Positions 13,805 through 64,000 of a stretch of 64,000 bases of DNA are shown in pieces. Origin of the DNA: Geosiphon pyriformis uo1. Taxonomy: Eukaryota > Fungi > Glomeromycota. Numbering within the stretch: the first letter of the stretch is position 1; each line of letters begins with the position of its first letter. Both the position numbers and the translations under genes were made by a program. The notes below the pieces were generated by a model. The model did no database searches, had not been told where the DNA came from, and worked only from the letters and a program-made list of their open reading frames with translations. The stretch is taken from positions 245,239 through 309,238 of the forward strand of contig JAAOMT010000227.1 in assembly GCA_016748015.1 (NCBI GenBank). Reading direction: 5' to 3'.

Positions 13805-15990
13805 GTGGCAGAATCAAAAAGCATAGAAGCAAACCATTTAGAATTCACAAAATCCTTATTTCAACACTACTGTCAACACTTGAGATTAAACCACAATCAG
13901 ATATCAGCAGAATCAGTCTTCAATTTCTATGTCAATGAAAAAATTGTCTATTTGTTAGGAATACCAGTAAACACTGAATTAGCGAGAGAAACTTTTTACC
14001 ATAAATTAATCCAAAATACCAGCTTACTAACAAATTATAATTTCGCATTTATCATTACTAAGATTAATAAAGAAATTGAACATTACATACAACAAAGATA
14101 CCCAATCATTTATGCCAGTAAAGGCAAAGAAAAATTACAAACACCAGCAGTAACACTCCAACGGATCTAACCACCCATTTGGAAGAAACACAGAATTGAA
14201 TCACCAACAAATCCATCATACCACTATATATCTGGAAGCGCCATCAACATTACAGCAACAGATGTGTCCACATTACACACAGCATCAACCTTTGGATGAT
14301 TCTCATTTCAGAGTAAACAAAAGAAAAAAGATCTTCTAGGATCATATGGCACATATTTCAAAGGATTTAAGTTATGATCTTCAACACCATCAGGACTTTG
14401 ATCTCTGCTACAGCAACCAGATTTCAGAATCGCGAGTCTCTGGGAAGTAACGGATTCAAAAAAAGAACAAGAAGAAGAGAAAGAAGAATCTAAAGATCAA
14501 GAATTTACTTACCAGAACCTGATCCCAGAAAACCCAAACATTAAAACCCCAAATTTTCAGACTCAGCAAAATCCAAATTTGGAAAATCCAGAAATTGAGA
14601 CTTTGAATTTCTAAATGCAGCACAATCAGAATGATCACAACCCCAACATCAATGATCAATAACACTTACCTCCAGTAATCATGATTAATTCAGCTCTACC
14701 AATCGACAAACAGCAACAGCAGTTACTTCAACCACCTCAACAACCACAGCAGCCACTTCAACAGCCACAACAACAACTGCAACAATCAAACATTGATCCA
14801 ATGGTCTACACTCTGATAGTAAAACTTGAAAAATTTACTGGCAAAAAAAACAACGCCCAAGTGTGGCTAAACAATGTGGAGAAAGCCATTATAGCCAACA
14901 GCTGGAATGATGCCAGAGCCATACAGGCTATTTTTTACTTTCTTCAAAATACCGCCAATTTATAATATCAAAGCTTGGCTAACAAACCCCAAGATTTTGC
15001 TGCATTTAAGCTTGCATTCCTACAATATTTTAGCAACAATAATAGTATTAATCGGCTAGCAAACACTTTCACCACTATCAAACAAGGGGAAAATGAAGCA
15101 GTCACTACTTACCTAAAATGCTTCCATAGGAATCTGTGTCAGATTCAAGCAATCCAAGCTGACTATTTTACAGTGCCCCAAATTCTAAACCAATTTATTA
15201 GAGGCCTGTGCAGTAGCATCCTCCAATGCATATGTCCAATGCATCCAGCAGATCTTCAAGCCACAGTTACCAATGCCTGAAATTTTGAAACAGCTGAACT
15301 CAAAGCTAACCATGCCCAAGCCGTTAACCTAGTGATGAATAGATCATCTGAATTGAATTCCAAATTGAAACAATTCAGTGATTCCATCAATCAGAAATTA
15401 GAGGAATACTTAGTTAACAATCATGCAATTTATCAGCCACCCCAATGATGCAATAATTTAGGAATCACAAATCACCCACAAAATCAGTTGTGTTCCTCAT
15501 CATCATCCAATCAGCTATGGCAGCAAGAAATGCATATTTGCTACTACTGTGGTAAACAAGGACATTTGAGAAGCAATTGTCAGTTAAGAATAGAAAACCA
15601 ACGATTGAGAAATCAATATTGAAACTCTGATTACAGGTTTCTAACTCTGAATTATCAATCAAGCTCAGCAACATATCAACTGACTTACCTGCCAATAATG
15701 CAACAGCCAATATATCAACCACCCGTATATCAACTTCCAGTTTATCCACCACAGCCACTGATAATATATCAACTGCCACAGCCACAAATAATTTATCAAA
15801 CACCCGCAGTTCAAACACCACCATCAAATCCAGCTCAAATAACATCAGAGAACCCTAGATCAAGAGTCATCTAAAACTGGAGATCAGTAATGGTTGTTCA
15901 CCAACTGATTCTTAGTTCACCCAACCAGCCATTCGGATTACAACAGCAGAGTTCAGGAACTAGGTACACGTAAAACCCAAGTTCCCAGAA
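13805..15990 (+). pseudogene. gag of element E (N-terminal extension, capsid, CCHC knuckle, YQPP repeats)
   Basis: One frame broken only by point-mutation stops; KFTG..AQVWL, QFIRGL, CYYCGKQGHLRSNC at ~15531-15580. Confidence 0.85.
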
Positions 15991-18900
15991 CTATTTAAGT
16001 CTTCTGGTTACTCCAGAAAGTGCCTCACCCAACAACTGGGAACCCAAACAGAAGCAACTGCTTACCAATATTCTGCCAGCCATTGTCATGGAAGACGAGT
16101 CTCTAGCAGCTATATTTTCTTTTGAAATCAAGGAACTGACAGAAACTCCTTTGTTCAGTGAAGCTGCACTTGAAGAAAAACCTATTACAGTGATATACAC
16201 GGATGCCAAAATTGATAATCAGTCTATCAAACTGATCCTAGATAGTGGATTAGCTAGCAGCATCATTACAAGACAGCTCATGGACCAATTAGATTGCTGA
16301 GTTGATCAAGCTGCCAATGCAAGGATAATTACTGCTGATGGAGCCACCAAGACACCAATTGGTAAAATAGATGCCCTACCCATTAAAGTCAATGGCATTA
16401 TTATACTGATCAAGGTATTAGTCATGGAAGCCACTCAGTACTAAGCACTCATTGGCAACAATTGGCTGTCCAAAACCCATGTAATACTCAATTGGAACAT
16501 TCAAGAGCTTCAGTTTAGTCAAAATGGTTAATACACACATGTACCAGTCACATGTGGCCATTTCAAACCCATCACCACACCATCAGCACCACTCATCAAG
16601 TTTAAAGAAGAAAAAGAGAAACCTACTTGGGAAGTATACCAAGTCTCTTTGGCTGATGAAGACCACAATAAGTTGCCGCTAATACTCTCCTGAGATAACA
16701 ATAACAAAAAAAAGCAGGAGGAAGAACTTACCTGGAATATTGACCAAGCCTGAGAAACTGATAATGACCAAGACAAATCAGCACACTGGGAGTGGAAAGA
16801 AATGGACAAGGGAAAGGGAAAGGAGAAGAAAAAAGAAACTACCCCTACCAGCAGCACTTATAGTTTATACGCTTATACCTCATTACAACCACCCAATTAT
16901 TGTCAACCAAAATTAAAATGTGTCAATTGTGGCAAAAGATTGTCATCAATGAGCACTTGCTGTGGCAATGATAAAGAATATGCCATGGTCACAAAATTTT
17001 ATTGCCATCCATGCATTATAAAACACTTTGGATGACCAAAATGACAAGGAAAGTGGGATAATTAATTCTGTTTCACATGTGGAACTATCTTACCAAACGA
17101 AGAAATGTGGAATGACATTCCTGGGCACAGAGGAATATGCGACAAGACATGCCAGTACACTATCTTGATAAACAACTGAGTAAGCAAAAGAACACCAATT
17201 GACGACACCTGGAAAAGAGCATTGCAACAATTAGAAAGATACCTCCATGACGAACATGAACTCTGAAGAATGGCATATGCAAAAGCAGAAGGTGTGACCA
17301 TCAGCAAACTACTGGAAATCAAAAACAATCCTCTATCTCTTCCTGAACCCAAATATGTTCAAACTNNNNNNNNNNNNNNNNNNNNCCCGTATATCAACTT
17401 CCAGTTTATCCACCACAGCCACTGATAATATATCAACTGCCACAGCCACAAATAATTTATCAAACACCCGCAGTTCAAACACCACCATCAAATCCAGCTC
17501 AAATAACATCAGAGAACCCTAGATCAAGAGTCATCTAAAACTGGAGATCAGTAATGGTTGTTCACCAACTGATTCTTAGTTCACCCAACCAGCCATTCGG
17601 ATTACAACAGCAGAGTTCAGGAACTAGGTACACGTAAAACCCAAGTTCCCAGAACTATTTAAGTCTTCTGGTTACTCCAGAAAGTGCCTCACCCAACAAC
17701 TGGGAACCCAAACAGAAGCAACTGCTTACCAATATTCTGCCAGCCATTGTCATGGAAGACGAGTCTCTAGCAGCTATATTTTCTTTTGAAATCAAGGAAC
17801 TGACAGAAACTCCTTTGTTCAGTGAAGCTGCACTTGAAGAAAAACCTATTACAGTGATATACACGGATGCCAAAATTGATAATCAGTCTATCAAACTGAT
17901 CCTAGATAGTGGATTAGCTAGCAGCATCATTACAAGACAGCTCATGGACCAATTAGATTGCTGAGTTGATCAAGCTGCCAATGCAAGGATAATTACTGCT
18001 GATGGAGCCACCAAGACACCAATTGGTAAAATAGATGCCCTACCCATTAAAGTCAATGGCATTATTATACTGATCAAGGTATTAGTCATGGAAGCCACTC
18101 AGTACTAAGCACTCATTGGCAACAATTGGCTGTCCAAAACCCATGTAATACTCAATTGGAACATTCAAGAGCTTCAGTTTAGTCAAAATGGTTAATACAC
18201 ACATGTACCAGTCACATGTGGCCATTTCAAACCCATCACCACACCATCAGCACCACTCATCAAGTTTAAAGAAGAAAAAGAGAAACCTACTTGGGAAGTA
18301 TACCAAGTCTCTTTGGCTGATGAAGACCACAATAAGTTGCCGCTAATACTCTCCTGAGATAACAATAACAAAAAAAAGCAGGAGGAAGAACTTACCTGGA
18401 ATATTGACCAAGCCTGAGAAACTGATAATGACCAAGACAAATCAGCACACTGGGAGTGGAAAGAAATGGACAAGGGAAAGGGAAAGGAGAAGAAAAAAGA
18501 AACTACCCCTACCAGCAGCACTTATAGTTTATACGCTTATACCTCATTACAACCACCCAATTATTGTCAACCAAAATTAAAATGTGTCAATTGTGGCAAA
18601 AGATTGTCATCAATGAGCACTTGCTGTGGCAATGATAAAGAATATGCCATGGTCACAAAATTTTATTGCCATCCATGCATTATAAAACACTTTGGATGAC
18701 CAAAATGACAAGGAAAGTGGGATAATTAATTCTGTTTCACATGTGGAACTATCTTACCAAACGAAGAAATGTGGAATGACATTCCTGGGCACAGAGGAAT
18801 ATGCGACAAGACATGCCAGTACACTATCTTGATAAACAACTGAGTAAGCAAAAGAACACCAATTGACGACACCTGGAAAAGAGCATTGCAACAATTAGAA

Positions 18901-19029
18901 AGATACCTCCATGACGAACATGAACTCTGAAGAATGGCATATGCAAAAGCAGAAGGTGTGACCATCAGCAAACTACTGGAAATCAAAAACAATCCTCTAT
19001 CTCTTCCTGAACCCAAATATGTTCAAACT
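15722..19029. other. Assembly artefact: 15722-17365 repeated at 17386-19029 across a 20-N gap
   Basis: Identical ORFs offset by 1664 bp; N run at 17366-17385. Confidence 0.9.
16088..16560 (+). pseudogene. Aspartic protease of element E
   Basis: LILDSGLASSII, ALIGNNWL; same frame as gag. Confidence 0.85.
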
Positions 19030-41374: not shown

Positions 41375-43782
41375 TTAGACCTGCACTTTCGCTTTTTTCG
41401 GAGTTGGCATACACATATATAGATGGCACTGATTTTCGTTTCGAAATCGTTTTTGGAGCCCAGCCTCCTCAAGTGATTGGATCGTTGGACCTTTTGGTTG
41501 AACTGCCTTTATTGTCTCTCGCACCACAGCCTGTCATTCATAAATACTTTAGCTTTATACATTATAACTGATATTTTAGACAATCTTACCTTTGCATTCA
41601 GAATGGATGCCAAGATTGTTAGAACAGAAGGAAATTTTCCTGCCTTATCTGGCACTTCCATCGAATCACTACGTCGAACTCGACAAATATAACCTTTTGG
41701 CTTGTCCAGATATAACATCGTCATCATCAAACCTTAAATGTTGACAATTTAGTATTTTAATTAATATAAAACTTAAATGCATGAACAACATACCTCCATG
41801 AATAATGCCAACTGTTTGTATTCTGGAACATTTTTCTTCATCCCAATCCACCTTTTCCATCAATTTTATTACCATATCCTTTAGTATTTTAGGAAGCTTT
41901 AATCCTATTTCCCTAAGAAACTTTGTTCCATGACGATCTATGCAGTATCTTCCTGCTTCTCCAGCCCCATACTCATCTTTTTCACCACTACCAATGGATC
42001 TTAGAATCCAGTCACTCCTATGACCAATTTTCTGCCGTACTCCTTAAAGTCTTTTGTTATTTTTTCGAATGGCCGTTGCTATACTCGTACTTTCTCCCCT
42101 AATTATTTTTTTTAAACAAGTAAGAAAAAAAGTCATCAGATCTATTAAAGCAAGCAATTTAAAAACTTAATACCTGACTACTGATAGTCCTTCTACATTT
42201 GAAAAACATTGGTCAACAATTATGCTCCATATGTGACAATTAAACCAATTTTCAAGATTGGTTTCTTCTAGCTTTTTACTTTCAATTTCGCTAATCCTAT
42301 AAAGCAATTTTAGTTAAATTCTTATTGTAAGTTTTGCACAAAAATTACTTACAGAGCATGTAGAGCAAAACATATGTAGTCGACATCATGATGTTTTTCA
42401 TAGTTATAATCAGTACCAAAAGTTATCTCCTTTAAAATACTTCGGATCTCCTTTAATTCAGTCTATTACAAAAAAAAAACTTGAATACATATATATTTAT
42501 CATAATGCATAATGCATTAATAAATTTTCCAAGACAATCAATAACATCCTCTGCAAGCTGAGGTACTGGTGGGATATGTGTATGAATGATTTCATCAAGT
42601 TCTCCTTTGTTGAAATGCTGCTTAATCGCCTCATCATCAACATCTATGATGAATGAATGTGCGGCACTAATAAATAAAACTTGGTTTAGTTTTTATAATA
42701 AACCAAACTTAATTTCATGAATACTAACTGTTCATATTTTAATTTTTTTCCCAACGCATACAATTCCTCTTCGACGTATCTTCCACTTGATAACCTCCAC
42801 ATGCGTTTCTTTTTCATTAATTTGAATGTGTTTTGAATTTCTTGTTGATTTTTTTTATCGAGGCGAAATGGACCAGTCTACATTATAATACAGAAGCGAC
42901 AAGCAGTAATAGAAAGTATAAAAAAGTAATCAAATAAAATGAAAAGATAAAAAAAAATCAAAAACTGGAATCTGCAAAAATTACCTTGTTCTCCTTTATT
43001 AAGACTTCCTCTTCTTCGTCTTTTTCATCATCATCATTTTCTTTTTTGTTTTCTTTGTCTTCTTCGTCTTCCTCATCTTTTTCGTCTTCTTTATCTTTTT
43101 CGTCTTTTTTATCTTCTTCGTCTTCTTCATCTTCTTCGTCTTCTTTATCTTCTTTGTTATTTGCATAGTTCTGTATTTATTACAAAAAACAAATTAAGTT
43201 ATGTAACAATGAAGCTAACAGATTTGCGAAAAGATTGCTAACCTTTATGGTAGCAATTTCATCAGTATTTGGTTCTCTATGATTAAACTCATCTTTGCCA
43301 TCAAGTGAAAGGCGTGATCTTGCTAATTGTCTAAATGCAAATAGAATATTACTAAACCCAAAATTTAAGAGATTTGTATAAAAATAACTACTTACAATGA
43401 ATTTAAGTTTCGCTTTGTCCACGATCATCATTTTTTTATGAACTTCCATTTTTTCTTCTTGGGCGTGAAGATCCTTCCAAAAGTTTTCAGTTGATCTTGA
43501 GCAGAGACACCTGTTGAGATTACAAAGCAACTTTTGCACCTGGTATTTTAAATTTGTATCCTCAGCTGCAATGGAATCCAGGGCTTGACGTAAAACTTCT
43601 TCAGCTTTTGCTCTAGCTGAATAGGTAAACTGACCCATTTTGAAGAATTTCACTACAGTAAAATTCCCTTTGAGAAGCTCCCGAAGAATATCGATATATT
43701 TCTATTAACACGCAGAGTAAAAAGATAGTACTGTAAACAAAAAAAATTGCAAACAAAATGATTCAACACTAACCGATGACAT
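41375..43782 (-). pseudogene. Multi-exon gene for a PD-(D/E)XK-like nuclease protein (Crinkler-associated REase-like family), probably inactivated
   Basis: ATG at 43782, GT-AG introns, acidic exon; motifs WRLSSGRYVE, HSFIID, ENWF..IW..VDQCF, GESTS...RKN, SDWILR, EYGAGEAG, LKLPKILKDM; ends PTPKKAKVQV*. In-frame TAA at ~42047 and +1 nt at ~43309. Family assignment from memory. Confidence 0.65.
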
Positions 43783-43863
43783 AGTTTATTAATATCTGAA
43801 GCTCTTGTTTTTGAGAGATACGTGTAAGTAGTAAGTAAAAGAAAAAAATCATGAAAGTATATA

Positions 43864-44362
43864 GGTTGTCACATCAACACCAGGAAGGTCTGATGTAACT
43901 ACGTCAATAGCAACACACAAAGACAGCCATAGCATCCTTGGGCTTTACAGGCGTTAAGCATTAGGTTTGACACCAGAACCTTATAAAAGTATAAGATTGT
44001 TACATCAGCACCGGGAAGGTCTGATGTAACTACGTCAATGGCAACACACAAAGGCAGCCATAGCATCCTAGGGCTTTACAGGCATTGAGCATTAGGTTTG
44101 ACAGCAGAACCTTATAAAAGTATAAGATTGTTACATCAGCACCGGGAAGGTCTGATGTAACTACCTTAAGGGCAACACACAAAGGCAGCCATAGCATCCT
44201 TGGGCTTTACAGGCATTGAGCATTAGGTTTGAAACCAGAACCTTATAAAAGTATAAGATTGTCACATCAGCACCGGGAAGGTCTGATGTAACTATCTCAA
44301 TGGCAACACACAGAGGCAGCCGTAGTATTCTCGAGCACTAGGTTTGAAACCAGAGCCTATAC
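43864..44362 (+). repeat. 131-bp tandem array, ~3.8 units, each with an internal hairpin
   Basis: Units start at 43864, 43995, 44126 and 44257; GTTACATCAG-N12-CTGATGTAAC. Confidence 0.95.
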
Positions 44363-44794
44363 ATCTTTCGAAAGCTGATAAGCATCTATGAGACAACTTA
44401 CCATGTGAGTCAGAAGTTGAAAGCGACGCGAACGTGAAAAAAATGAAAAAGTGAGTATTTCATTTGGATGTAGTGCGCGACTATACTCTTTTGTTGATAT
44501 ATCAAAATCCATTGTTTTTATTAGCAGAATTTATACTGATAGATAAAAGATCTTCAGAATGGATCTTTTATCTATCAGTATAAATTTTGCTAATAAAAAA
44601 TGCTTGACTAGATAATGGATTTGAAATATCAACAAAAGAGTATAGTCGCGTCAGCCAGAGGCGACGTACACTACTACACATCCAAATGAAATTCTTATTT
44701 TTTCATTTTTTCATTTTTTTCACGTTCGCGTCGCTTTCAACTTCTGACTCACATGGTAAGTTGTCTCATAGATGCTTATCAGCTTTCGAAAGAT

Positions 44795-45293
44795 GTATAG
44801 GTTCTGGTTTCAAACCTAGTGCTCGAGAATACTACGGCTGCCTCTGTGTGTTGCCATTGAGATAGTTACATCAGACCTTTCTGGTGCTGATGTGACAATC
44901 TTATACTTTCATGAGGTTCTGGTTTCAAACCTAATGCTCACTGCCTGTAAAGCCCAAGGATGCTATGGCTGCCTTTGTGTGTTGCCCTTAAGGTAGTTAC
45001 ATCAGACCTTCCCGGTGCTGATGTAACAATCTTATACTTTTATAAGGTTCTGGTGTCAAACCTAATGCTCAATGCCTGTAAAGCCCTAGGATGCTATGGC
45101 TGCCTTTGTGTGTTGCCATTGACGTAGTTACATCAGACCTTCCCGGTGCTGATGTAACAATCTTATACTTTTATAAGGTTCTGGTGTCAACCCTAATGCT
45201 TAACGCCTGTAAAGCCCAAGGATGCTATGGCTGCCTTTGTGTGTTGCTATTGAAGTAGTTACATCAGACCTTCCTGGTGTTGATGTGACAACC
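44795..45293 (-). repeat. Mirror copy of the 131-bp array
   Basis: Reverse complement of 43864-44362 with the same unit order. Confidence 0.95.
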
Positions 45294-45373
45294 TTTACAC
45301 TTTCATGATTTTTTTCTTTTACTTACTACTTACACGTATCTCTCAAAACAAAAGCTTCAGATATTAATAAATT

Positions 45374-46415
45374 ATGTCATCGGTTAGTGTTGAATCATTT
45401 TGTTTGCAATTTTTTTTGTTTATAGTACTATCTTTTTACTCTGTGTGTTAATAGAAATATACCGATATTCTTCGGGAGATTTTCAAAGGGAATTTTACTG
45501 TGGTGAAATTCTTCAAAATGGGTCAGTTTACCTATTCAGCTAGAGCAAAAGCTGAAGAAGTTTTACGTCAAGCCCTGGATTCCATTGCAGCTGAGGATAC
45601 AAATTTAAAATACCAGGTGCAAAAGTTGCTTTGTAATCTCAACAGGTGTCTCTGTTCAAGATCAACTGAAAACTTTTGAAAGGATCTTCACGCCCAAGAA
45701 AAAATAAAGAAAGTGAGACAAAAAAGGAAGTTTATAAAAAAATGATGATCGTGGACAAAGCGAAACTTAAATTGATTGTAAGTAGTTATTTTATACATAT
45801 CTCTTAAATTTTGGGTTTAGTAATATTCTATTTGCATTTTAGATAATTAGCAAGATCACGCCTTCACTTGATGGCAAAGATGGGTTTAATCTTGGAGGAC
45901 CAAATAATGGTGAAATTGCTGTCATGAAGGTTAGCAATCTCTTTGGAAATCCGTTAGCTTCACTGTTACATAACTTAATCTGTTTTTTTTTAATAAATAC
46001 AGAACTATGCAAATAACAAAGAAGGTAAGGAAGATGATGAAAAAGATAAAGAAGACGAAAAAGATGAAGAAGACGAAAAAGATGAGGAAGACGAAGAAGA
46101 CAAAGAAAACAAAAAAGATAATGATGATGATGAAAAAGACGAAGAGAGGAAGTCTTAATAAAGGAGAACAAGGTAATTTTTGCAGATTCCAGTTTTTTTT
46201 GTTTTTTTATCTTTTCATTTTATTTGACTACTTTCTATTACTGTTTTTCGCTTCTGTATTTTAATGTAGACTGGTCCGTTTTGCCTCGATAAAAAAAATC
46301 AATAAGAAATCCAGAACACATTCAAATTAATGAAAAAGAAACGCATGTGGAGGTTATCAAGTTGAAGATGCGTCGAAGAGGAATTGTATACATTGGGAAA
46401 AAAATTAAAATATGA
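45374..46415 (+). pseudogene. Truncated inverted copy of the first five exons of the nuclease-like gene
   Basis: ATGTCATCG-GTTAG at 45374; TGG to TGA at ~45677; homology ends at 46415. Confidence 0.85.
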
Positions 46416-46463
46416 GAGGACTTTATGAAAATAATTTGCGGTAACTCGGGAAAGAATAATATT

Positions 46464-46990
46464 TTAATCAGAATTATACTCATTTGCTCCATAAACTCTA
46501 TTGAAATGCACAATATTCAATGAATTAACTTCTCTTGAAGATAAATGTGAAAGCCAAAAGCCCAAATTTACAATCCGATTCAATCCGAAAAGTCGCAAGC
46601 GATGCCCAGTCACCCTTTTTGGACATTGTCTACGAACCTCGGCCATTGTCTCTTCCTCATTTTGATACTTTGTAATGCGAAACCTTTCGGCAAAATTAGA
46701 CGCAAAGAAAACGGAACTAGAACTTAATAAATATTCTTTTGGAGTGTGACTATGGGAAGAGTTAGATGAGACTGATGAAGGGGTTTAAGATAATCAATGT
46801 GGATCGGTTCGGAGCCAACCGGAAAACAAAATTCGTCTTCTTCATCGACTACTTTAGTAATTATTGTCGGTTGATGATCATCTAATACGGATGTAAAAGG
46901 AGCTGGTTTCTGAAATAGCTCTGAATGTTCAAAAGTAAATATAGGCTGAAGAGTCGACACGACAAGAGGTATGCGCTTCTCTTTGACCTA
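46464..46990 (-). CDS. 3' exon(s) of an unidentified gene or pseudogene
   Basis: CpG-retaining sequence, ORFs 46724-46960 and 46464-46646, TAG acceptors at ~46988 and ~46717. Confidence 0.4.
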
Positions 46991-48499
46991 GATATATAAG
47001 ATGAACTTGGTAATACTCGCTCAAAATATCAAAACAAATCAGGTTAAACTGGCTGTTTTTATTTCAAAACATAAGAAATACAGAACTTAACAACTTAAAA
47101 AATCGGTTTTACGTATATAACAAAAGATTATGTATCTACAAAATAGAATTTATAAATTTTAAGTTTTATAAAATTTTAAATAAATTAGTTTAATATTATA
47201 TTTTGAGAAAAAAATTACACAATTGCTTAAACTACAAGAAAAAAACTCAAAATCTAATATTAAAAATTATTATATTTAGTATAATAGCTTTATAATTATT
47301 ATAAACGTTTTTTCTATTTTCAGATTTTTTTGGAAAAATTAACAACTGAGTTTTTGAAATTAATTATATTTATTGAAGTGTTCACTTATTTCATTAATTT
47401 TACATTGTTTTTAGTTTCTCGTTTATCTGTTATCTATTTGAACCAAAAATTAGCATAAGATTATTCTTATTATCTTATTATTTATATTAATTATTTTTGT
47501 CTTTTATTTTATCAATAACTCAATAGCAATTTACATATACAATTAAATATTATATTTAAGTCATGTATTATTTCAAACTACATAACAATAAATATTTTAA
47601 AAATTTGTCAAAAATTTTGCAAAAAATAATACTCAAAAAGTGCATTTTATAATAATTAAGAAGTTTAGATATTTTTAAAAAATACAATTTACTAATACAA
47701 ATCTCTTTTATTTAAAAATAAAATCAACAAAAATATTTTTTCAATATTTTCATTACACTATAAATTAATAACTAATATTAATGCAGTTAAAACTAATTTA
47801 ATTTAAATTTCTTAATCTTATAACAAAATTTTCAATAATTATATTAAGATAATTAAATAAACCAAAATTTTAAGGTTTTGTGTTTGGTTTAGGCAAATTT
47901 TTTTTAATTTGAAACAAAAATAAAATTTGTAATTTTGAGCAAAAGAAAAAAATCACTAAGTAATTTTTGTTGTTTCAATGGCATATTAAATGATCAAAAT
48001 TTTCATAAATAGTTACATTCAAAATCTTCTTTTCTTATGCTTGCTGTTTCGATGTCATGATTCTAAAGAATTCAAATGAAATAAATAATTAATTTCAAAA
48101 TAATTTCACAAATCAAAAAACTAAAAATAAGTACATTTACCTATTTTAAATTGCCAAATATTTACTTAATGGTTTCATATTACTGTGCACCCATCACAAA
48201 ATTATAATCAACGATAAAAAAATTAATAATATTGTAACTTTGCAGAGATAATTTGCTTTATTATTATTAAATAATAAGTTATAAGTCATAGAAATTTTTA
48301 AGTTACAATAAAGCTAGATAGTTTTTATAAAAAATATTTGTATTCAAATGAAAAAATTAATGAAAATTCACAAAAGGCAGCACTCATTCTTTCATTACCT
48401 CATTTCATTCAATCTTAGCATTTTTTGGAAAACATTGTTAATTATTAAAATATACTATAATATTTATTGTAGCAGGCCAGAAAGTATTGTTTGGTAAAA

Positions 48500-49560: not shown

Positions 49561-51090
49561 TCAATAAGAAATAATTGATTAGATTTCGCTGTAAAACAAT
49601 AAAAAGTATGAACAAGTTTATTATAATTTATTTCAAATTTTTTATTTATAAATTTGAAAATATTTATAATTTTATGAATATATTAAAAATTATTTTGAAT
49701 AAATTTTCTTATGAAATTTTAAATTTGGTTGAAGAAATATATAAATAAACAAAACTTTAGATTTAAGTGTCAGGTATAATTTTTTATTATAAATAAAACA
49801 TATAACTAAATAGTAATTTTTGAAATTTAATTTTTATTTCCTAATTAGAAATATCTTAATTTCATGCCTTTTTTAATAATTAACACAAAACTTGAGTTTA
49901 TTGACTACATTTAAATACTTTTTTAAAAAATCTGTGCTCATTTAACTAAAAAAATTAATTAACTTATAGAAACCAAAAGCCGTAATAAAGTTGGATCAAT
50001 CAATTAATCAATATAAATATTAATAATTAATTCAAAAAGAAGATAAAAAATGATTTTTATCAAATACACATCAAAATTGATAATTTATTTCTAGATTATA
50101 ATTAAAAGATGATAATTATGTATTTTTAAATTAATAATATTCTTTAACATTTTAGTGTTATTATTTTTAAAATAAAAAACTTGAAATTTTTTTTTAATTA
50201 TTATTTAACTTGCAAATTAATAAATTTAAGTCTGAAACTAAAAAATTTATAAAAATAAAATTATTTTATTTAAGAAAATTCACAAATATTTAATTCGAAT
50301 AATTAAAAAAATAAAAGAGATTTAACAAGCAGTACTAGTAATTTAAAATTTTTCTTTAAATTAGAAAAATAAAAATAAAAATAATAAAAGTGAATTAAAT
50401 TGCTAATATTTAGATGATTAAATTACTTTTCTATAGCTTTGAAAAGGTTTATTTATATATTATCAATAGTTTAGTCAATAATCAAATTAACAATTGGAGT
50501 AAAAATATAATTAATAGCCAAATTATTAATCAAATTAATAAAAATATTAATAATTAATGCTAAAAATAAAGTGGTCAAAGTATGTAATATTAATAACTAA
50601 TATAATTAAAAATAAATTTTATAAAAAAAAGAAAATCTATTTAAATATACAAATTTTTTAAGGCTTAAATTCAATTTAGAAAAGAGTAAAAATATACACA
50701 AACAAATAAACTTTCAATTAGATAAAATAATAGTTAAAAAAACATAATTAAATATTTTTAAATTATTATTATAATATTTCTATATTATTAAGTGTAAAAT
50801 AATTTGTTAACAACAATGCTTAACACTATTTGTTTAAGCTTATATTTGATAAAATATACTATTAATATATATTTGAATGTATTTAAAACAATTCTTAGTC
50901 TTAATGAATCTTAAAATGGTACAAAAAAAGCAGAAATACAAGTTTTTGGTTTGTTATAACATGTTATGAATTTCAAAAAAAAAAAAAAAAAAATTTTATC
51001 ATTTAGATACTTTTATTATCATAATACAAGTGGTGTTTAACATCATTTTTTTTTGATGAATTGAGTTAATTTAACATTAATTCTTAATTA

Positions 51091-51375
51091 ATGAGACAAA
51101 CTATATTAGTATTAAGCTTTTATCAATAAAACAAACTAAGTTAGTGTCAAGCTTCTATTGATAAGACAGGCTAAATTAGTATCAAGTTTTTATTGATAAG
51201 ACAGACTAAGTTAGTATTGAGTTTTTATTGACAGAACAAATTAGATTAATATCAAATCTTTATTAATAAAACAAACTAGGTTAATATTAAGCTTTTATTG
51301 ACAGAACAAACTAAGTTAACATTAACTCTCTATCAATAAAACAAACTAGATTAATATTGGATCTTTAGTGATAAA
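51091..51375 (+). repeat. 35-bp minisatellite, ~8 diverged units
   Basis: ATAAGACAGACTAAGTTAGTATTGAGTTTTTATTG-like units at 35-bp period (51161, 51196 ...). Confidence 0.85.
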
Positions 51376-54600: not shown

Positions 54601-56912
54601 TGGACAAAATTAGTGCATAGATTATAGAGATTATTTATTTTTTCTTGCACTTTTATCTTACTATATTCTTTGCTTGAACTCTAAGAAAATTGATTAGTAA
54701 CATTAATAATGGCATCTAGTTGCTTGGCTTTCTGTTAACTTTTTATCTTTGAATTCTAGCACTTTTTCATTGAAATATTGCAAAAATACACTACAATCAG
54801 AATTCCCAAAAATTGGGCTAAAAATTGGATCTATGTAAATAGTATATAGTTTTATTTTTCTAATAGAAAATTTTAATATTATTGTTAATACTTTTGAATA
54901 CTAATTGAAATGTATTAATACTATTAAATAACTTTTTTTTTTCTATAATTTAGTCTACTTTTACATGTTTTCAATAGCCTGTATAATAGTGTACTCTCTA
55001 TAAGCACAATTAATTATAAGCATTTTTTTTCTTTGTAGGTACTATAATAAAAAAGATATATATTTAAATTTTCTCTTTTTATCACATTAAATAAGAGCAA
55101 AAAAAACAAAATATTTTGACAATAGGAATAATTTTTAAGAAAACTTTAATATCAAACTCTGTTTTGTACTTAGTAAGTTTTTGCATAATATTTTTGTATA
55201 TCATATTCAATAATTTAACACAAAATATTTTAATCATTAAAAAACAATGTTATTTGAACTTTAATAAAAGAATATATTATAAAGATCTATAATATAAAAT
55301 TAAAAAAGAGTTTGAAAATAGTAAAATAAAATAAATAAAAAAATAAAAGCATAAACAAATTTTAAAATAAAAAAATTGAAACATACAATATCTGTTGAAC
55401 ATGGCTTTCAAAAAAAAACCATTATTCTTTATTAATTTTAAGGATTTCTTCTTAAATATATGCTATTTTTAAAAAATATCTAAATTGTTTATGAACCATC
55501 TAAATTTTTTACAAGGCAAAAATCTTAATTACGACTTTACTATATTATTAATAATAATAAGACAATGAATTTGTATACTTGAAGTAACTAAATTAGAGTC
55601 TGCTTTATTATCAAAAATGTCTCCAATATTTCGAAGTAATGAATATAATAAAAATAGTGGTAAATAAGTAGAATATTTTCTTGTCAAAAAATTAAGTGTC
55701 TAAAAAACAGAGTAAATTTTAATATCATTTTTCCTTTACTATGTTTTAAAAACAACTCATTGTCATTTATTTGAAATTTTTTTTTCTCATCAACATTTGT
55801 TTTTAACTACAAACCAACAAACAATGATTAAAAAATTGGTTAAAAGAATCTGTTGTAATTTAAAATAAAAGGTTGAAAAAATTTATAATTGTACTTTTTT
55901 CTGTGCTAAAAAAGCTTGTTTTATTTTATTTTATTATATTAAAAATAGTACAAAAATTTAAACCATTTTACTGCTCTAATTTACTTATCTTATTAAAAAC
56001 ATTACATTTTTCAAGACTGAAAATTTTGGAATCAATTGCATCAAATTTGCAGCTTTGAATAATATAATCCCAAAAAGAATATAGTTGGCTATTTTCTAAA
56101 AACTATAATTATTGAAACATAATAATTAATATTTGTGCTAATTAATTTTTTTATCCATACAAAAAAACAAAACATAATAATCTTTTAGTTTGAATCTTTC
56201 TATTGTAACATCTCTTTAGCCTTGTAAAAAAAATACTTTTGTCAAGCATTATTAAGACTGGTTTATTTATCTAAAAAAAATGACAATATGATAATTTTAG
56301 TCTGGTTAAATCACAAAAAATGCCAATATAAACATTTTTCAAAAGAAATTTTCTTAAAATACTTGATAAAAACTGTCAAAAATAGAAATAAAAAGTTACT
56401 AGTTCAATTATTTCTCTTGCCAAATAAGGTTTTTTTCTTTAATACTTACTATTTTTACTAGAAAAGGTGTTAATAATTTTTTGTTATTAAGACTTTAAAA
56501 TTTATAATTTCAAGATATTGGGCAAAACATATGCTTAAAAAAAAACAAATTCAAAATAAAAACACAAAAAAAATACAGTTTAAAAAAAAACAAGCTTAAA
56601 AATAAATACACTCAAACATGTTTAAACATGTGAGATCTAAGATTATAAAATTTTGTGTAAAATCAAATATTTTGTTTTGAATATTTTATTAATATAAATA
56701 TTTATATAGTTATTTTATATGTTTACTTTAGATATTGTAAATTTCAACTGCTGTAAACTCTCTAAATATTATCAATAATACAATATACAATGTTATAAAA
56801 AATTTATTTATATTATATTGTTGTACTACCATAGAATAAACTCTAAAAACCCCTATAGAATCAAAATTTTATTTCAAATTAAAGCACAAATCTGAATAAA
56901 TGACTTATATAT

Positions 56913-57807
56913 TATTATAAATGATTATTTGAAGTCTGAAAACAAATAACAAATCTGTAACTTAGTGCTTAATAGCTAATATTATTAATTATATTTGAAG
57001 ATTTTCGTATTTAAAGGTGTTGGTTAAGTTCATTATATAATAAACAAAAATTCAATAGTTGTTTTAATAGTCTTCCAGAATCACAATTTTGTTAATTTTT
57101 TTCTTGGCTTAATGACTGGCAATCTTCTAGTAAGTAATTCTTAATTTCAAGTATCTACTCTTTTGCAAAAGTTTTTTATCAGACAATTCTTGATTTTAGT
57201 AACTCAGTGCTTTAATCTTTTAATCAATTAGTAATTCTACAATAAACAAAACAAAATAAAAAAAATAAAATAAAAAAATAAAAAAAATAATAGAAAAAGA
57301 AAATAAAACAAGTCAAGACAAAAAAGAATTAGTATTCTATCAATAGCTGTGATTAAGAGCTATTAGTTCAGTGTAATTAAGTATTAGCAACTATTAATAT
57401 GAATTTTTAATAGGAGAAAAATAAATTGTAAAGGTTTAATCAGTATTTTATTAATATTTGATGTTTTTACTTCAAGTCATAGAATACTATTATATAAAGA
57501 AATAGATAAGAATTTGGATTTTTAATTGGGAATTCTACTTTTTTTGCTTCTAATACTACTGCTATATATACATAAATTTTGTTATATAAAATTTCTTGAA
57601 TTTCTTAATTTTTTAGCCAAGAATCCTGGAATTTCTCAAAAGAAATCCTGAAATTCTGGAATTCTGCAATTTTTTATACTGAAATCTTGTAATTCTGAAA
57701 TCTTACAATTTCTTTGAGAAGAATCCTGGAATTCTACTTTTATTATGTTTTCTTCTGATTGGCTAATTTGTGTACTAATACATAATTCTTATATTATATA
57801 AGTAATA
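56913..57807 (-). repeat. 3' LTR of element F
   Basis: Homologous to D LTRs; eroded TG..CA termini. Confidence 0.8.
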
Positions 57808-60800
57808 TTATCTCCTCTTTTTAATATTGAACTTTGTTAAAATCTATTTTATCTTCTAATTTTTCTTCTTTAATTAACTCTTAAACTTTTTTTATAAGAA
57901 TTACTTAGGTTATTTTAATCTGTAATTCTTCAAATTAGGCATTGATTATTTTTTTTATTGATTGATTGTAATTGTGTTCATTACTGGATAAAGTAGTATG
58001 GCTGATCAATCTTGAAATTCTGCATATAGCTGATATATGGCTTGTGCTTGTATAGACAGATTGTTCTTTTTTACAAATTGTTTTAGTTATTGTAGTATTA
58101 TTATATTGAATAATTATTTTGTTTTATTAGTATATAAATTCTGAATATTGAGAGTCTGTTTCAAATAGTAATAGCAAAAGTTTTTTGGATATTGTTGTAA
58201 CCATTAATTCCAAGTTTCTTTGATTACTTTTTGGTATAGTACAGTTGTTTTTGATGTTTCTATTAATAACTTTACTTTTGCTATTATTTTGTTTATGATA
58301 TTTTCTAATTTTCTGTGTACTTTGCATTGGATTTTCTTTTGATTATCTTTGTATCAAATAGTTTATTAGTTAATAGTGATTTCCAGACTTGTTTGTTGAA
58401 TCAATTAAAATAGTTGTTGTACAAGTAAATAGATGTCATTGGTAATTTCCATCTTTTATTGTTGCTTTTGGTTATGTCTATCATCTCTTTATATACTATT
58501 CTGTTTAATCAATTTGATATTTTTGTATTAATGACTATGATTGGTTCAAGATCTTATGGAATTTCATCTGGTTGTACTAATATTTGTTGTACTCCTAGTT
58601 GTAGAATACTATTGGTAAATGCTAATGTGTAATAATAAAGTTTTAGTCAATCATTATGTACTGCTTTGGCTAAGATTTTGTTGTCCCATCTTAGCTTATA
58701 TGTTCCATTTCCCCAAATTTTTTCAATGTAGAATGATCTGTCCCATTTGGGATCAAATCTTCTACTCTATTGTTTTTCTGCTTTAATACAATATAGAAGT
58801 ATTTTGTCTCTAATCCTGAATTCAACTAGTTTATTTGGTAATTAGTTATCATGCCATTTTTTTTGTTTTGTTTGTGACTTTTAAATATTATCAGCTGCTT
58901 TTTGTCATTTGTTTTTTAGAGTTTCTATTAGTTTGTATGTTCTTCTTAGCAATATTTTTTGAAAATTAGCTTCATTTATTGGTTCAGTTAGATATGTTTT
59001 GACTTTTATTTCAACTGGTAATGTTGTTGTTCTATTATAAACAAGTTCAAATGATGTTGCTTGTATAGTATCTTGTTTTATTGTTTGATAAGTGAATAGT
59101 ATTAATGGTATGCAAATCTCATTTATCCTGGTTTTTTTGACTGATTTTGGCTATTATTTCACACAATATTCTGTTGAATTTTTCAACTAAACTATTTGTT
59201 TGTAGATGATATAATAAAGATAATAGTCTTTTGATTCCAAATTTTTGACTTAATTCTGTTAGTGTTCTGTTTACAAAGTGAGTTCCTTGATTAGATAACA
59301 ATTTTTTTGGACATTTATGTCGACAAATTAGATTTTAATGAATAAATTCTGCTATGGATTCTGCATCTGCTCTTTGAATTGCTTTTGCTTCTGGCTATTT
59401 AGTGAGATAATCAATGGCTACTGCAATATATTTATTTCCTCTGCTAGTTATTGTTAATAGTCCAACTAAGTTAATTCTAATTCTATCAAATAGTTGTTCC
59501 ACATTAATTGGTTTTAGTAGTTTACTGGGTCTTGTTTCTCCTCTTCTTTAACAAGCATTACAATTTTGAATATATTGGATGATATCTAAATATATTGATG
59601 GCCAGTAATATTTCTTTTTGGTTCTTTCCATGATTGTTTCTTTATGAAAATGTTCTGTTGTCAGATCTAAGTGCATATTATATAGTATTGTTTCTTTCTC
59701 TGGTTCTGTGATTACTCTGAGTAATTAATCTGGATTTTTTCTGTTTTTTTAATATAATATATTTTGGTGAATGATAAAATATTTTGATTGTTGTTTTATG
59801 TTGTTTTGTTTTTTTTGAGATAATTTTTTTTGAACTGCTGGATATTAATATAATATTAGAGTTGTTAATATTTTTGTGCATCTATCTTTTGTTATATTTT
59901 TGAGTTGAAATGTTCTTAAATTTGTTTTATTTGTGACAAACTGTTAGCATTTTTATTTTCTTTTCTCTTTTTATAATATACAGTATATTTAAATAATAAA
60001 AGTTCTATTTTCTATCTGGCATAATAATTATTTCCAAATTTTTGCTTCTGAATTGATGTCAATTTTTTGTAATCAGTGTATATTTCAAACTTTTGGCTTA
60101 AATACTCTTTCCATTTTATAACTGTCTAATAAATAGCTAAGTGTTTTAATACTAGTGTTTCATAATTTTTTTCTGCTGGACTCAAACTTTGGCTGGCATA
60201 TACTACTAGATGTTCTCATCTATCTGGTTTTTTCTGAAATAGTATGACTTCTAATGTTTAACCAAATATATTGGTAGTAATGCTAAATGGCTTGCTGTAA
60301 TCTAAATAGATCAATACTGGTGCTTGAATAAGTTTTTTTCTTAAAATATTAAAAGCTTTTTGTTGAGCCTCAGTTTATTTATATTTCATATTTTTAGTTT
60401 GGAGTTGGTGAAGTAGTTGAGTCAGTTTAGAAAAGTTTTGGATAAAATAGTAATAATATCCAGCAAATCCTAAGAATGCTTATAGTTCTGTCAAGTTTTT
60501 TGGTACTAGAAAGTTCTTTATTATCTCAATTTTATCTGGATCTGTTTTAATGCTATTTTTGTTTATAATATGTCTCAAGAATTTTAATTCTGTTTTGCCA
60601 AAGAAACACTTGTTTGCATTTAACTTTAATTCAGCTCTCTTTAATCTTTTAAACACTTACTAAAAATGGTGAAGATAGTCATTAAATGTTCTTGAAAATA
60701 TATTTGTATTGTCCAAGTATATGACTACTAATTTTCATAGTAATTTGATGTAAACAATTTCTATGAGTTGTTAAAAAATGGCTGGTATATTGGTTAAGCC

Positions 60801-63800
60801 AAATGGCATGATTTTAAACTTAAAATTTCTTTTCTTGATAATAAATGCTGTTTTTTCTTTGTCAGCTAGATTTATGGCTACTTGCCAGTAACCACTATTC
60901 AAATCCAGTGTCAAGAACTATTTTTTTTTTCAAAAGCATCAAATAATTCCTGAATCTGTGGAGTCAGATAACTGTCTCCATAAGTAATATTATTGAGCTT
61001 TCTGTAATCTACACAAAAGCAAATTTTCCCATTTTTTTTATAAACTAGTACTACTAATAATGACCATAGGTTTATTAATGGTTGAATTAACCTATTGTTC
61101 AATATCCAGTTGATTTTCTATTAAATAATTTCATGACTTGCTAATAGTACTCTGTATGTTTTTTGTTTAATTGGCATTGTATTTTTTGTCTTGATCTGGT
61201 GCTAAATGATATTGGTTTTGCCAAATTTATTTTCACTGGCAAAGATATCAGTAAAATTGTTAAGTAACATCTTGAACTGCATTCATTAAAGTGGGTCTAA
61301 GTTTCTCAAGTTTATTTGTTCTAATTGTTTTTGTTAGAGCAAATAGTATTCCTCTTATCTGTATATTGTTTGTGATGTGATATCTACATATCTACACAAT
61401 TGTGCAAAATCTAGAATGGTGCTTGGTGGTTGGTCTTTAACTTTAGTGCTTAAGTATTTAATAGTAGTTTTTTTTTGTATTTCAATAGAGTTTCCAGTTG
61501 TATTGTGAATAGGAATTTTAATGTGTTTATGGTTTTTAGCTGGTATGTAGAAATTGGTAATAACAATCTCTTCTGATTCATAAATAGTAACTTCTGCTTC
61601 AAAAATTTGGGGTTGATCTCTTACTTTTTTTTCTATAACTACTAAATACTAGTTATATGATAGAATAGAAATTGATTGATGAATGGAGATAATTTTTTTT
61701 TGTTAATAACTTTTTCCTCTGTTATGTTAACTGGTATATCTATTCTACTTGTGGATTCGAATCCATTTTTTCTTTTAACTGTAATCTCTAATTTTTTTCT
61801 TGTTCTTATTAATATTAACTGAGCTATTTTTATTAAAAATAAAAATATTGTCTCTGCTATCTTTTCATTTGGTTCAATAATATATGGTTTTTTTAAATTG
61901 TTTTGTAATATTGCAATGATATTTCTTATGTATTCTGCATCAATTATTCCTTCTCTAATGTTAATTTTTCTTTTTGCTAAACTAGATCTAGATGCTAATT
62001 AAACCATAGTTGTTGTTAGAATTTTTAGTACTACTTTTAAATCAATATATATGTGTAAATATGGTTCTAATTTAATAATATCTTTTCTTGGATATCTTAA
62101 ATCAAATCTTGCATCAGTATTATGTATTTATTCTGGCATAATATCTTTGTTGTTATCACTGAACTATTTTAGTTTCTGTTCTATTAACAAATCTGGGAAT
62201 GCAATATATTGTTTAGAGTTATAATCAAAGTTTGAATCATTTTTGTCATTGCCATAGTAAATGAAGTTGAAACCAATAATTGTTGTCATTATTGAAGTTT
62301 GAATCAGAGTTGAATTTTGATCCTGATTCTGCTGTACATTTGTTAATTAGTTTGTCTTTTTTGGAAATCAAATAAATCATTTATAATGGTAAATTGTAAA
62401 TGAAGTCACAATCATTACAATACTAAAAGTTACATGGTATTAAACAATAATCACATAATCAGGTGTTTAATTGTTCTAAATGCTGTTTTTGCTCCTTTTT
62501 AGTAGGTGCTAATTCTTAATAATATTTATAGAATTGTTTAGAATTTATTATGTCAAAGATAATATTGGGATTTGGGACCCAAATAATCTTTTTTGGTTCT
62601 GGTGAGTTGCTTTTGATTATTTTGATTTCTTTTTGTGTCACACCTTTGATTTTAGCAATAAACATTCTCCATATTTTGTCATTATTGTATGAACAATCAT
62701 CTAAATGTTTTATAGCTCTTCTTTAAATAATATTTATGGGTGTTTTTTTCCTTACCCAATCACTGATCAAAATTATGTATTGACATAATTTGTCACATGT
62801 TTTTTTATGACCAGAAATGTTGTTTTATATTTCTTTGTCTAGAAAAGTTTCCTTACATATAAGACATAATTTATTGTCTCATTTTTTTTGTCTTTTTGGT
62901 TGTTTAAAGCATTTAAGAATGCATGAGTGGCAGTAATATTTAGTAACTGTTGGTTATTTCTCATTATTATAACAGTATGCACTCATTGATGACAGTTTCT
63001 TGTTACAATTAACACATACTAGGTTTGGTCAACAATAGTTGGAGCAATTAGTGTTATTTGGAGTATAAGTGAAGGTTGTGGCTTGGGATTTGTTTTTTTC
63101 TCTTTTCTTTCTATGTAAATATTAATAGTAGATTGTTGTGATTAGTGTTAGCCCATGAGACTTGATAGGCTTCCTAGGTAGATTTCTTTTCTTTTTCTTC
63201 TAATTCTATTAGTAATGTTAATATGTTGGGTTTGAAATATTCACAGGTTGCCAATACTTATGTATGCTGGCCATTCTAACTAAGCTAGAGTTTTTATATA
63301 GTCCAATTAAGTATTGTATTGGTCTTGGATAGACAGTTGTTACCAACTAGTGCTTAGTATTAGGTGGTATTCATCACAAGAACTTTTATAGATACAATGA
63401 TACTATTGATTTCAAACAGAAAGTTGTCAATCTTACTAATAAAAGTTTTAGTTGCTCCATTAGCTGTAATAATTTTGGTGCTGGCAGTACAATCAATTCA
63501 GCAATTTAATTAGTCTATAAGTTGTCTGTTAACCTACTATTCAGGATTAGTTTAATGAATTGTCTATTGACTTTAGCATCAGTATACATTGCAGTAATAA
63601 GTTTAGTATTAAGAACAGCTTTACTAAATAAAAGTGTTGTTGTTGGCTCCTCAAGTTCAAAAAAAAATATTGCAGCTAGTAATTTGTTATTAGTAATGAT
63701 TGCTGATAGTATGTTGCTAATGAATAAGTTATGGTTGGTTTTCAAGTTTTTGAATGAGGCATTTTCTGAAATAACTAACTTACTTAAATAGTTCTGAGAA

Positions 63801-64000
63801 TTTAGGTTTTGGGTGTATTCTGTTTTCAAACTCTGCTGCTGCAATTCTGATAGTTGGCTTGCTAAGCTAAAAATCAGTTGATACATTACTATTGCTGATT
63901 GCTAGTTTTGTTGAATATGTATTATTTTTGGTCTTGAGTTCTTGATTGACACAGTAGTTTGAAGTGGTGTTTAAATTTGTTGAAACTGATAAATTATCTG
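56913..64000 (-). mobile_element. Ty3/Gypsy element F (D/E family), more eroded, runs off window end
   Basis: 3' LTR 56913-57807, PPT AAAAAGAGGAG, ORF3 57821-58452, IN to 59885, RT/RH 59916-61260, dUTPase ~61740-62130, PR ~63250-63650. Confidence 0.88.

Follow-up and report, generated by a model that had tools for sequence, protein, structure and literature searches.

Autoregulatory elements are known from several pre-mRNAs, among them the yeast RPL30 intron, the U1A PIE with its two like loops, and the P element, in which the third intron is retained. One motif recurs in many loops of CsrB-type RNAs, and TIGR guide arrays combine a conserved scaffold with short variable segments. Type III toxin-antitoxin systems (ToxIN, CptIN, and TenpIN) place tandem structured RNA repeats upstream of a nuclease gene, according to the accessible text of PMC6315513. 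Crinkler-related (CR) proteins join a header domain to a restriction endonuclease (REase), as described by Zhang et al. 2016 and relayed in the accessible sections of the review PMC5289972.

The locus compared here lies in a window of 64,000 nucleotides (C686:245239-309238 of G000, a 128-Mb eukaryotic assembly that includes it). Like type III toxin-antitoxin loci, as the accessible text of PMC6315513 presents them, it has tandem repeats co-transcribed upstream of a nuclease-fold gene; unlike them, it consists of 131-nt units in a eukaryotic, spliced gene with a predicted restriction-endonuclease fold, the likeness being one of layout. With the CR proteins, as portrayed in the accessible sections of PMC5289972, the gene family shares a variable helical N-terminal header, a C-terminus of restriction-endonuclease fold, expansion, and the joining of headers to different C-termini. 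It differs in showing no ubiquitin-like header, NTPase, kinase, or Pfam match, and no LXLFLAK motif of Crinklers (CRN) in alignment A1, and those sections mention no intron RNA element for CR proteins. With its header plus REase architecture the family may belong to the CR proteins in the wide sense, and it may stand in the supplements of Zhang et al. 2016. As in the RPL30, U1A, and P-element cases, a structured element lies near a regulated splice site, and retention or alternative splicing leads to a non-productive or truncated product; here, however, the loop is diversified between paralogues and uniform over the 4-6 stems of a gene, and the reader protein is putative. As in CsrB and TIGR RNAs, a motif is displayed in many loops and a conserved scaffold holds short variable segments, which here are intronic, lie in cis, and are alike within a locus rather than diverse. 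Taken alone, the array in the window could be ordinary. The larger result came from its paralogues, which hold a covarying intron RNA with gene-specific loops; it is apparently undescribed, no description having been found in literature listings, subscription papers and Zhang et al. 2016 apart.

The gene (41375..43782, minus strand) is spliced and encodes the helical header, an acidic linker, and the domain of predicted restriction-endonuclease fold; a truncated inverted copy, also spliced and with a stop and indels, occupies 45375..46415 on the plus strand. Contigs of three runs bear on their expression, namely X1, a DNA run, and X2 and X3, which are taken as RNA solely because their contigs lack GT-AG introns still present in X1. 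Two early stops of the left copy fall inside a spliced intron, for which reason a reading of the stops as glutamine was rejected, and contigs of X1, X2, and X3 do not show the stop that lies in the nuclease exon. An intron near 42512-42463, devoid of a donor consensus, is retained in both spliced runs and ends the frame ahead of the nuclease core. Elsewhere in G000, a contig end truncates another near-identical copy of the 3' end of the gene (C545:36581-38120), and a fragment at C684:20563-21091 departs from the window sequence at 43237, continuing with another 5' part. Spliced contigs near the 3' end carry the letters of the C545 end at five of five sites. Both window copies look damaged, and the locus is expressed but probably decaying.

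Relatives of the gene are labelled Glomeromycota and Endogonales, and 42 homologues sharing its C-terminal part are 58-70% identical to it, except for one that is identical and bears the label Geosiphon pyriformis. A profile search (E up to 0.001) sorts the family into 1792 clusters at 50% identity; it is mislabelled in databases, has no Pfam model, and gave no Pfam family match in 31 members. The size of the family raises the question of how a cell copes with so many genes of this kind. The nuclease-like fold proposed in the initial annotation is supported by the model of a homologue, P0023 (pLDDT 88.7), which aligns to restriction-endonuclease folds: mitoribosomal chains of that fold (Z 10.5 and 10.4, rmsd 4.5-4.9, about 205 aligned residues), BpuSI (Z 8.9, rmsd 3.5, 154 aligned), and DrdV (Z 8.8, rmsd 3.6, 142 aligned). 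Foldseek gave no match at E 0.001. The family is accordingly predicted to have a PD-(D/E)XK restriction-endonuclease-like fold with an alpha/beta core. Residues 90% conserved in 100 sequences (E144, D201, E214, E219, K231, K239, K242, and D246) form no canonical D-x(n)-E-x-K string. The model of P0002, a mis-spliced database protein, was set aside at pLDDT 48. Searched against the protein atlas, the header returned nothing above 0.76, and viral contigs contained neither a relative nor the intron element.

Upstream of the gene, Tandem Repeats Finder recovers the tandem array at a period of 131, with 3.6 copies at 43854-44325 (93% matches) and 3.6 copies in a second arm at 44832-45303 (91% matches). 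The left arm (43854..44360, minus strand, the transcribed strand of the leader intron) comprises three full units and a degenerate one, and its mirror copy spans 44799..45306 on the plus strand; the distance of 82 bp given initially is correct, the ATG lying at 43782. The 10-bp stem described for each unit is present in eight of eight, its perfect form GTTACATCAG-N12-CTGATGTAAC in only four. The motif TATAAAAG stands at five of six unit junctions and is missing from one, and the letters of a GGTT..AACC mini-hairpin are visible in the sequence, its folding being inconsistent. A compensatory change in the 10-bp stem was looked for across the units and none was found; over the whole unit, variants break ten predicted pairs and keep eight, with one two-sided change. 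A single unit folds with z between -1.5 and -3.1 relative to shuffles, the leader intron with z -6.7, and the array at -185.6 on the transcribed strand versus -159.9 on the other. Each unit presents a C-UUCCC-G loop followed by CUGAUGU, the loop being repeated because the unit itself is tandemly duplicated; it occurs in one stem context only. CpG is depleted in the array (0.2-0.3 in one count, an observed/expected ratio of 0.34 in another). A DNA search of G000 at BLAST sensitivity matched the unit at eight places only, all in the two arms of the window. Rfam 15 gave sub-threshold matches only for the array region, the best on the palindrome centre.

Several candidate identities for the array were rejected. 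A guide array of CRISPR or TIGR type would hold unrelated spacers, and here just a few bases separate one variable 9-mer from another; one variable 9-mer position pairs with another variable site. Subterminal repeats of a transposon were set aside at a single locus in G000 with no dispersed copies that share ends. A loose stem pattern, ACATCA-N10-16-TGATGT, occurred at 96 places against 19 in controls and was dropped, most of the matches listed belonging to another repeat.

The two arms belong to a fold-back inverted duplication of about 3.7 kb (42732..46415, no strand assigned; 91% over 3779 columns), whose centre (44528..44586) has a 9-nt spacer, 44553-44561, between perfect 25-bp arms. Template switching is known to produce fold-back inversions, and the locus resembles such events in its short spacer, in the two letters shared at the switch, and in an unduplicated paralogue where the old junction persists; no difference was seen, and fold-backs recur beside this gene family. 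The decayed paralogue on C545 crosses the same spacer into unrelated sequence and X1 contains both continuations, from which we infer that the right arm is a fold-back copy primed at the two shared letters; the X1 contig across the junction has 30 letters on its left side, where the rule asks for 31, and X1 may underlie the assembly. An assembly artefact was rejected as the source of the arms because these differ by substitutions and indels and X1 holds arm-specific contigs without mismatch. The initial claim that a mirrored variant order makes the array older than the inversion is borne out by unit identities. Mirror units agree at 128-130 of 131 positions and different full units at 116-126, and since mirror units are thus more alike than neighbouring ones, the array is the older and the palindrome a later fold-back copy. 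The C545 copy is without the array segment, which, judging by its sequence, looks as if it was lost by microhomology deletion.

Both gene copies are transcribed outward from the palindrome centre. Of 15 splice joints listed out of 16, ten are GT-AG on the left arm (minus strand), four are GT-AG on the right arm (plus strand), and one is non-canonical; all 14 canonical joints read outward and none inward. The non-coding first exon of the left copy (44402..44500, minus strand) has a CpG observed/expected ratio of 2.0, and its mirror in the right copy (44643..44755, plus strand, represented by an X2 contig of the same extent) one of 1.85. Outward TATAAAT boxes lie at the centre (44535, minus; 44579, plus), which is likely a bidirectional promoter, and the lack of X2 or X3 cover over 44522-44584 is a weak hint. 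Little remains of the idea that the units are multimerised TATA promoters firing inward, which we regard as very improbable. The recurrence of TATAAAAG at the junctions speaks for it; however, the canonical joints, which bear on spliced RNA, all read outward, the boxes and CpG-rich first exons at the centre point the other way, and TATAAAAG, whose frequency in controls is 0.16 per kb, amounts to a used splice acceptor read on the opposite strand.

This acceptor, CTTTTATAAG before G, lies at a unit junction (reverse strand of TATAAAAG at 44244). One leader intron of 598 nt (43804..44401, minus strand, GTAAGT..AACAAG) removes the entire array, and an alternative of 160 nt (44242..44401, minus strand) shares this donor but ends at the first unit junction, TTTTATAAG before G, leaving three units in the mRNA leader. 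The 598-nt joint was read from one contig of X2, whose shorter flank has 29 letters, and the 160-nt joint from one contig of X3, where it has 30; contigs attest presence alone. The unspliced donor at 44401 is also present in X2, and two more junction acceptors of the same sequence (43980..44111, minus strand, AG ending at 44111 and 43980) were not seen in use. With the start taken as 44500, the leader measures 120 nt with two upstream ATGs when the array is removed and 558 nt with 17 when three units are kept. A layout in which each unit is an exon plus a 54-nt intron was discarded, there being no such joint among those listed. On the right, spliced contigs run beyond the end of the arm (46411-47070), and X1, X2, and X3 all carry several letters between 46700 and 46905 that depart from the assembly.

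The reading that we favour, at a probability of roughly 0.5, is that the array RNA is a splicing and translation brake on the nuclease-fold gene, whose own protein is its likely reader. The hairpin unit, expanded in tandem within an alternatively spliced 5' leader, would act at the RNA level: from the one donor at 44401, the distal acceptor removes the array and the junction acceptor keeps three units. The long leader would presumably be poorly translated or degraded, and acceptor choice would therefore set nuclease output. A protein that binds the repeated hairpin loops could shift splicing, and by analogy its simplest candidate is the gene's own N-terminal helical domain, because the intron RNA of the paralogues, named scaffold I below, travels with the header exon and not with the nuclease domain. 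In that putative analogue several hairpins follow the header domain, the loop is uniform within a gene and different between genes, the intron often stands behind a weak GC donor, and retention would give a header-only peptide. Counted against the brake are the absence of a model match, the position of the array before the header, the closest header paralogue (C700) with no leader array, the C545 copy without the segment, the damaged gene copies, the ten pairs broken to eight kept, and leader joints on single contigs with 29-30 letters.

The main rival is a neutral local expansion, in which a segment with branch point and acceptor was tandemly duplicated within a gene undergoing decay, alternative splicing being a side effect, a reading to which we assign clearly lower odds, without dismissing it. 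It accords with the single locus in G000, the missing match to the family element, the CpG depletion, the damaged copies, and a stem free of compensatory change. Against it stand the composition of the unit, which is GC-rich and structured along its whole length, unlike the other introns of the same gene, and a survey in which 20 stretches surrounding paralogues were set beside 40 controls taken at round coordinates fixed in advance. GC-rich arrays occurred in five of the former versus one of the latter (p 0.013; one array accounts for two of the five, two have a unit in common, and one stretch is without a family match), and the single control array turned out to be an intron that follows a similar header exon. 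The suggestion that structured repeats are linked with the nuclease genes is upheld at the level of the family, in GC-rich arrays beside paralogues, a conserved intron RNA, and gene-specific loops. The arrays at C783, C536, and C667, which are of unrelated sequence, occupy the intron that follows the header exon. Folding favours the gene's strand in all 14 arrays and intron elements, a bias that may partly reflect G+T-rich introns. No tandem array was present in 20 short metagenome loci.

Further repeats were noted in passing. Tandem arrays of 129, 56/43, and 65/136 bp lie in, or derive from, post-header introns (L096:3959-4590, L094:4123-4351, L093:3289-4128, and L161:7404-8350). A GC-rich 170-bp array with a gap and at least seven copies lies behind a truncated paralogue (L082:6160-7883), with about one unit in L085, and three short tandem arrays (41, 41, and 67 bp) precede a paralogue fragment at L172:2763-3494. 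Inverted partial duplications of family genes were seen in L088, L090, L093, L096, L172, and L176, several of them tail to tail; such tail-to-tail copies could give rise to hairpin RNA.

In genes with a P0011-type header, the following intron holds two to four three-way modules, each with two hairpins that bear a five-base loop, with four to six such loops per gene. This scaffold I was aligned from 11 sequences, nine from G000 and two metagenomic. It occurs at L163:3525-3745, L162:4905-5120, L164:3505-3720, L168:4985-5135, and L088:3665-3815, in L166, L165, L167, L173, L209, and L087, and in the metagenomic L148 and L160. In the alignment 88.5% of cells are paired and 17 of 50 pairs are changed on both sides; none of 500 shuffles scored as high and slid controls reached 27-41%, statistics that are favoured because the structure was drawn from the same 11 sequences. 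One-sided changes are G-U compatible on the transcribed strand, and scaffold I therefore points to RNA. In G000 the core pattern was matched at 11 places, ten of them in genes with this type of header, against none in the control, and scaffold I is also present in two of 20 metagenome loci. The covariance model located more modules at C669, C463, and C659, against only 28-nt partial matches in 39 controls, and Rfam 15 returned no match for six paralogue loci. Loops in different stems (for example UCUUC, UAGAA, UGCUG, CGCUC, and UCUUA) are 0.74 identical within a gene (78 pairs) versus 0.45 between genes (762 pairs; permutation p 1e-4), and the scaffold itself is 0.71 identical between genes. 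With splice sites inferred from sequence, eight of 12 post-header introns have a predicted GC donor, and the frame ends inside the retained intron in eight of eight tested.

Another header type is followed by a second scaffold, in which each of three genes (L206:3065-3185, L207:3135-3275, and L208:3345-3485; loops UGCUA, UCUUA, and GGAAA) shows four like loops; two of the three fold otherwise in the minimum-energy model. A scan for clusters of pentaloops found them in the sense strand of 12 of 50 family loci and the antisense of nine, with one in 39 controls; at 12 versus nine, it gives no strand. In other post-header introns, one loop recurs in different stems at L081:4990-5100 and L142:590-700 (UCGAGG; CUUUCAUC or CUUUUAUC).

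These properties bear on two further readings. If the dyads were DNA sites that the protein binds or cuts, cutting in cis would account for the fold-backs as well, and inverted duplications of at least 200 bp do occur in four of the 20 paralogue stretches versus none of the 40 controls (p 0.01; two flank assembly gaps), with two of 20 in a later batch. We nonetheless hold this to be quite improbable, given the G-U compatible changes on the transcribed strand, a fold-back point about 200 bp from the array, and the fact that the loop, not the dyad arms, stays fixed within a gene. Improbable as well, to a lesser degree, is an excised or processed intron RNA that acts on the nuclease as an RNA antitoxin, a decoy of its target sequence, or a short bipartite guide. 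The loops of a gene change together and faster than the scaffold, as a specificity determinant would, and the layout of co-transcribed structured repeats upstream of a nuclease-fold frame resembles that of type III toxin-antitoxin loci in the accessible text of PMC6315513. Scaffold I, however, accompanies the header exon even where no domain of the nuclease family lies within 9 kb, the loop complement stands at no constant place in ten loci, and five to seven bases are short for a guide.

A wider proposal, which we advance tentatively and at less than even odds, is that fungal header-plus-nuclease genes carry a cognate intron RNA, a multivalent hairpin element whose five-base loop is a gene-specific code that the protein reads as lock, antitoxin, or guide, on scaffolds that differ between subfamilies and are sometimes amplified; the 131-nt array would then be an amplified element moved to the leader. 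A comparison of header residues with loop bases gave one suggestive position, picked afterwards and left out of account. Should a small header indeed read a five-base loop code, it would constitute a new programmable RNA-binding module, and an intron RNA cognate to its protein would mean diversifying protein-RNA recognition inside single eukaryotic genes. The gene-specific loops offer a direct test, namely a loop swap between genes with splicing or binding as the readout.

By homology, the array in the window is no member of scaffold I. The best score of the first covariance model within it was 2.2 bits (E 7.6), and the second model gave no match there; the array sits in the leader intron, before the header, versus after the header exon for scaffold I, and window contigs run unbroken through the header end. 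The C-UUCCC-G loop with its CUGAUGU resembles one scaffold I arm, and the array is GC-rich and lies in a long 5' intron, with a C-N5-G loop that recurs in its sense-strand hairpins. The same loop in different stems is not a property of the array, and a 13-base motif common to it and C701 was chosen after both sequences had been viewed. It is an analogue at best, and may work alike.

Much of the window is decayed Ty3/Gypsy retroelement, with several decayed LTR elements of this group, bearing a dUTPase domain, at 5000-35800 and 56900-64000. A direct duplication of 1644 bp at 15722-19029, 100% identical and flanking a gap of 20 N, is likely a scaffolding artefact, and an AT-rich 35-bp tandem array of 8.7 copies lies at 51071-51375.
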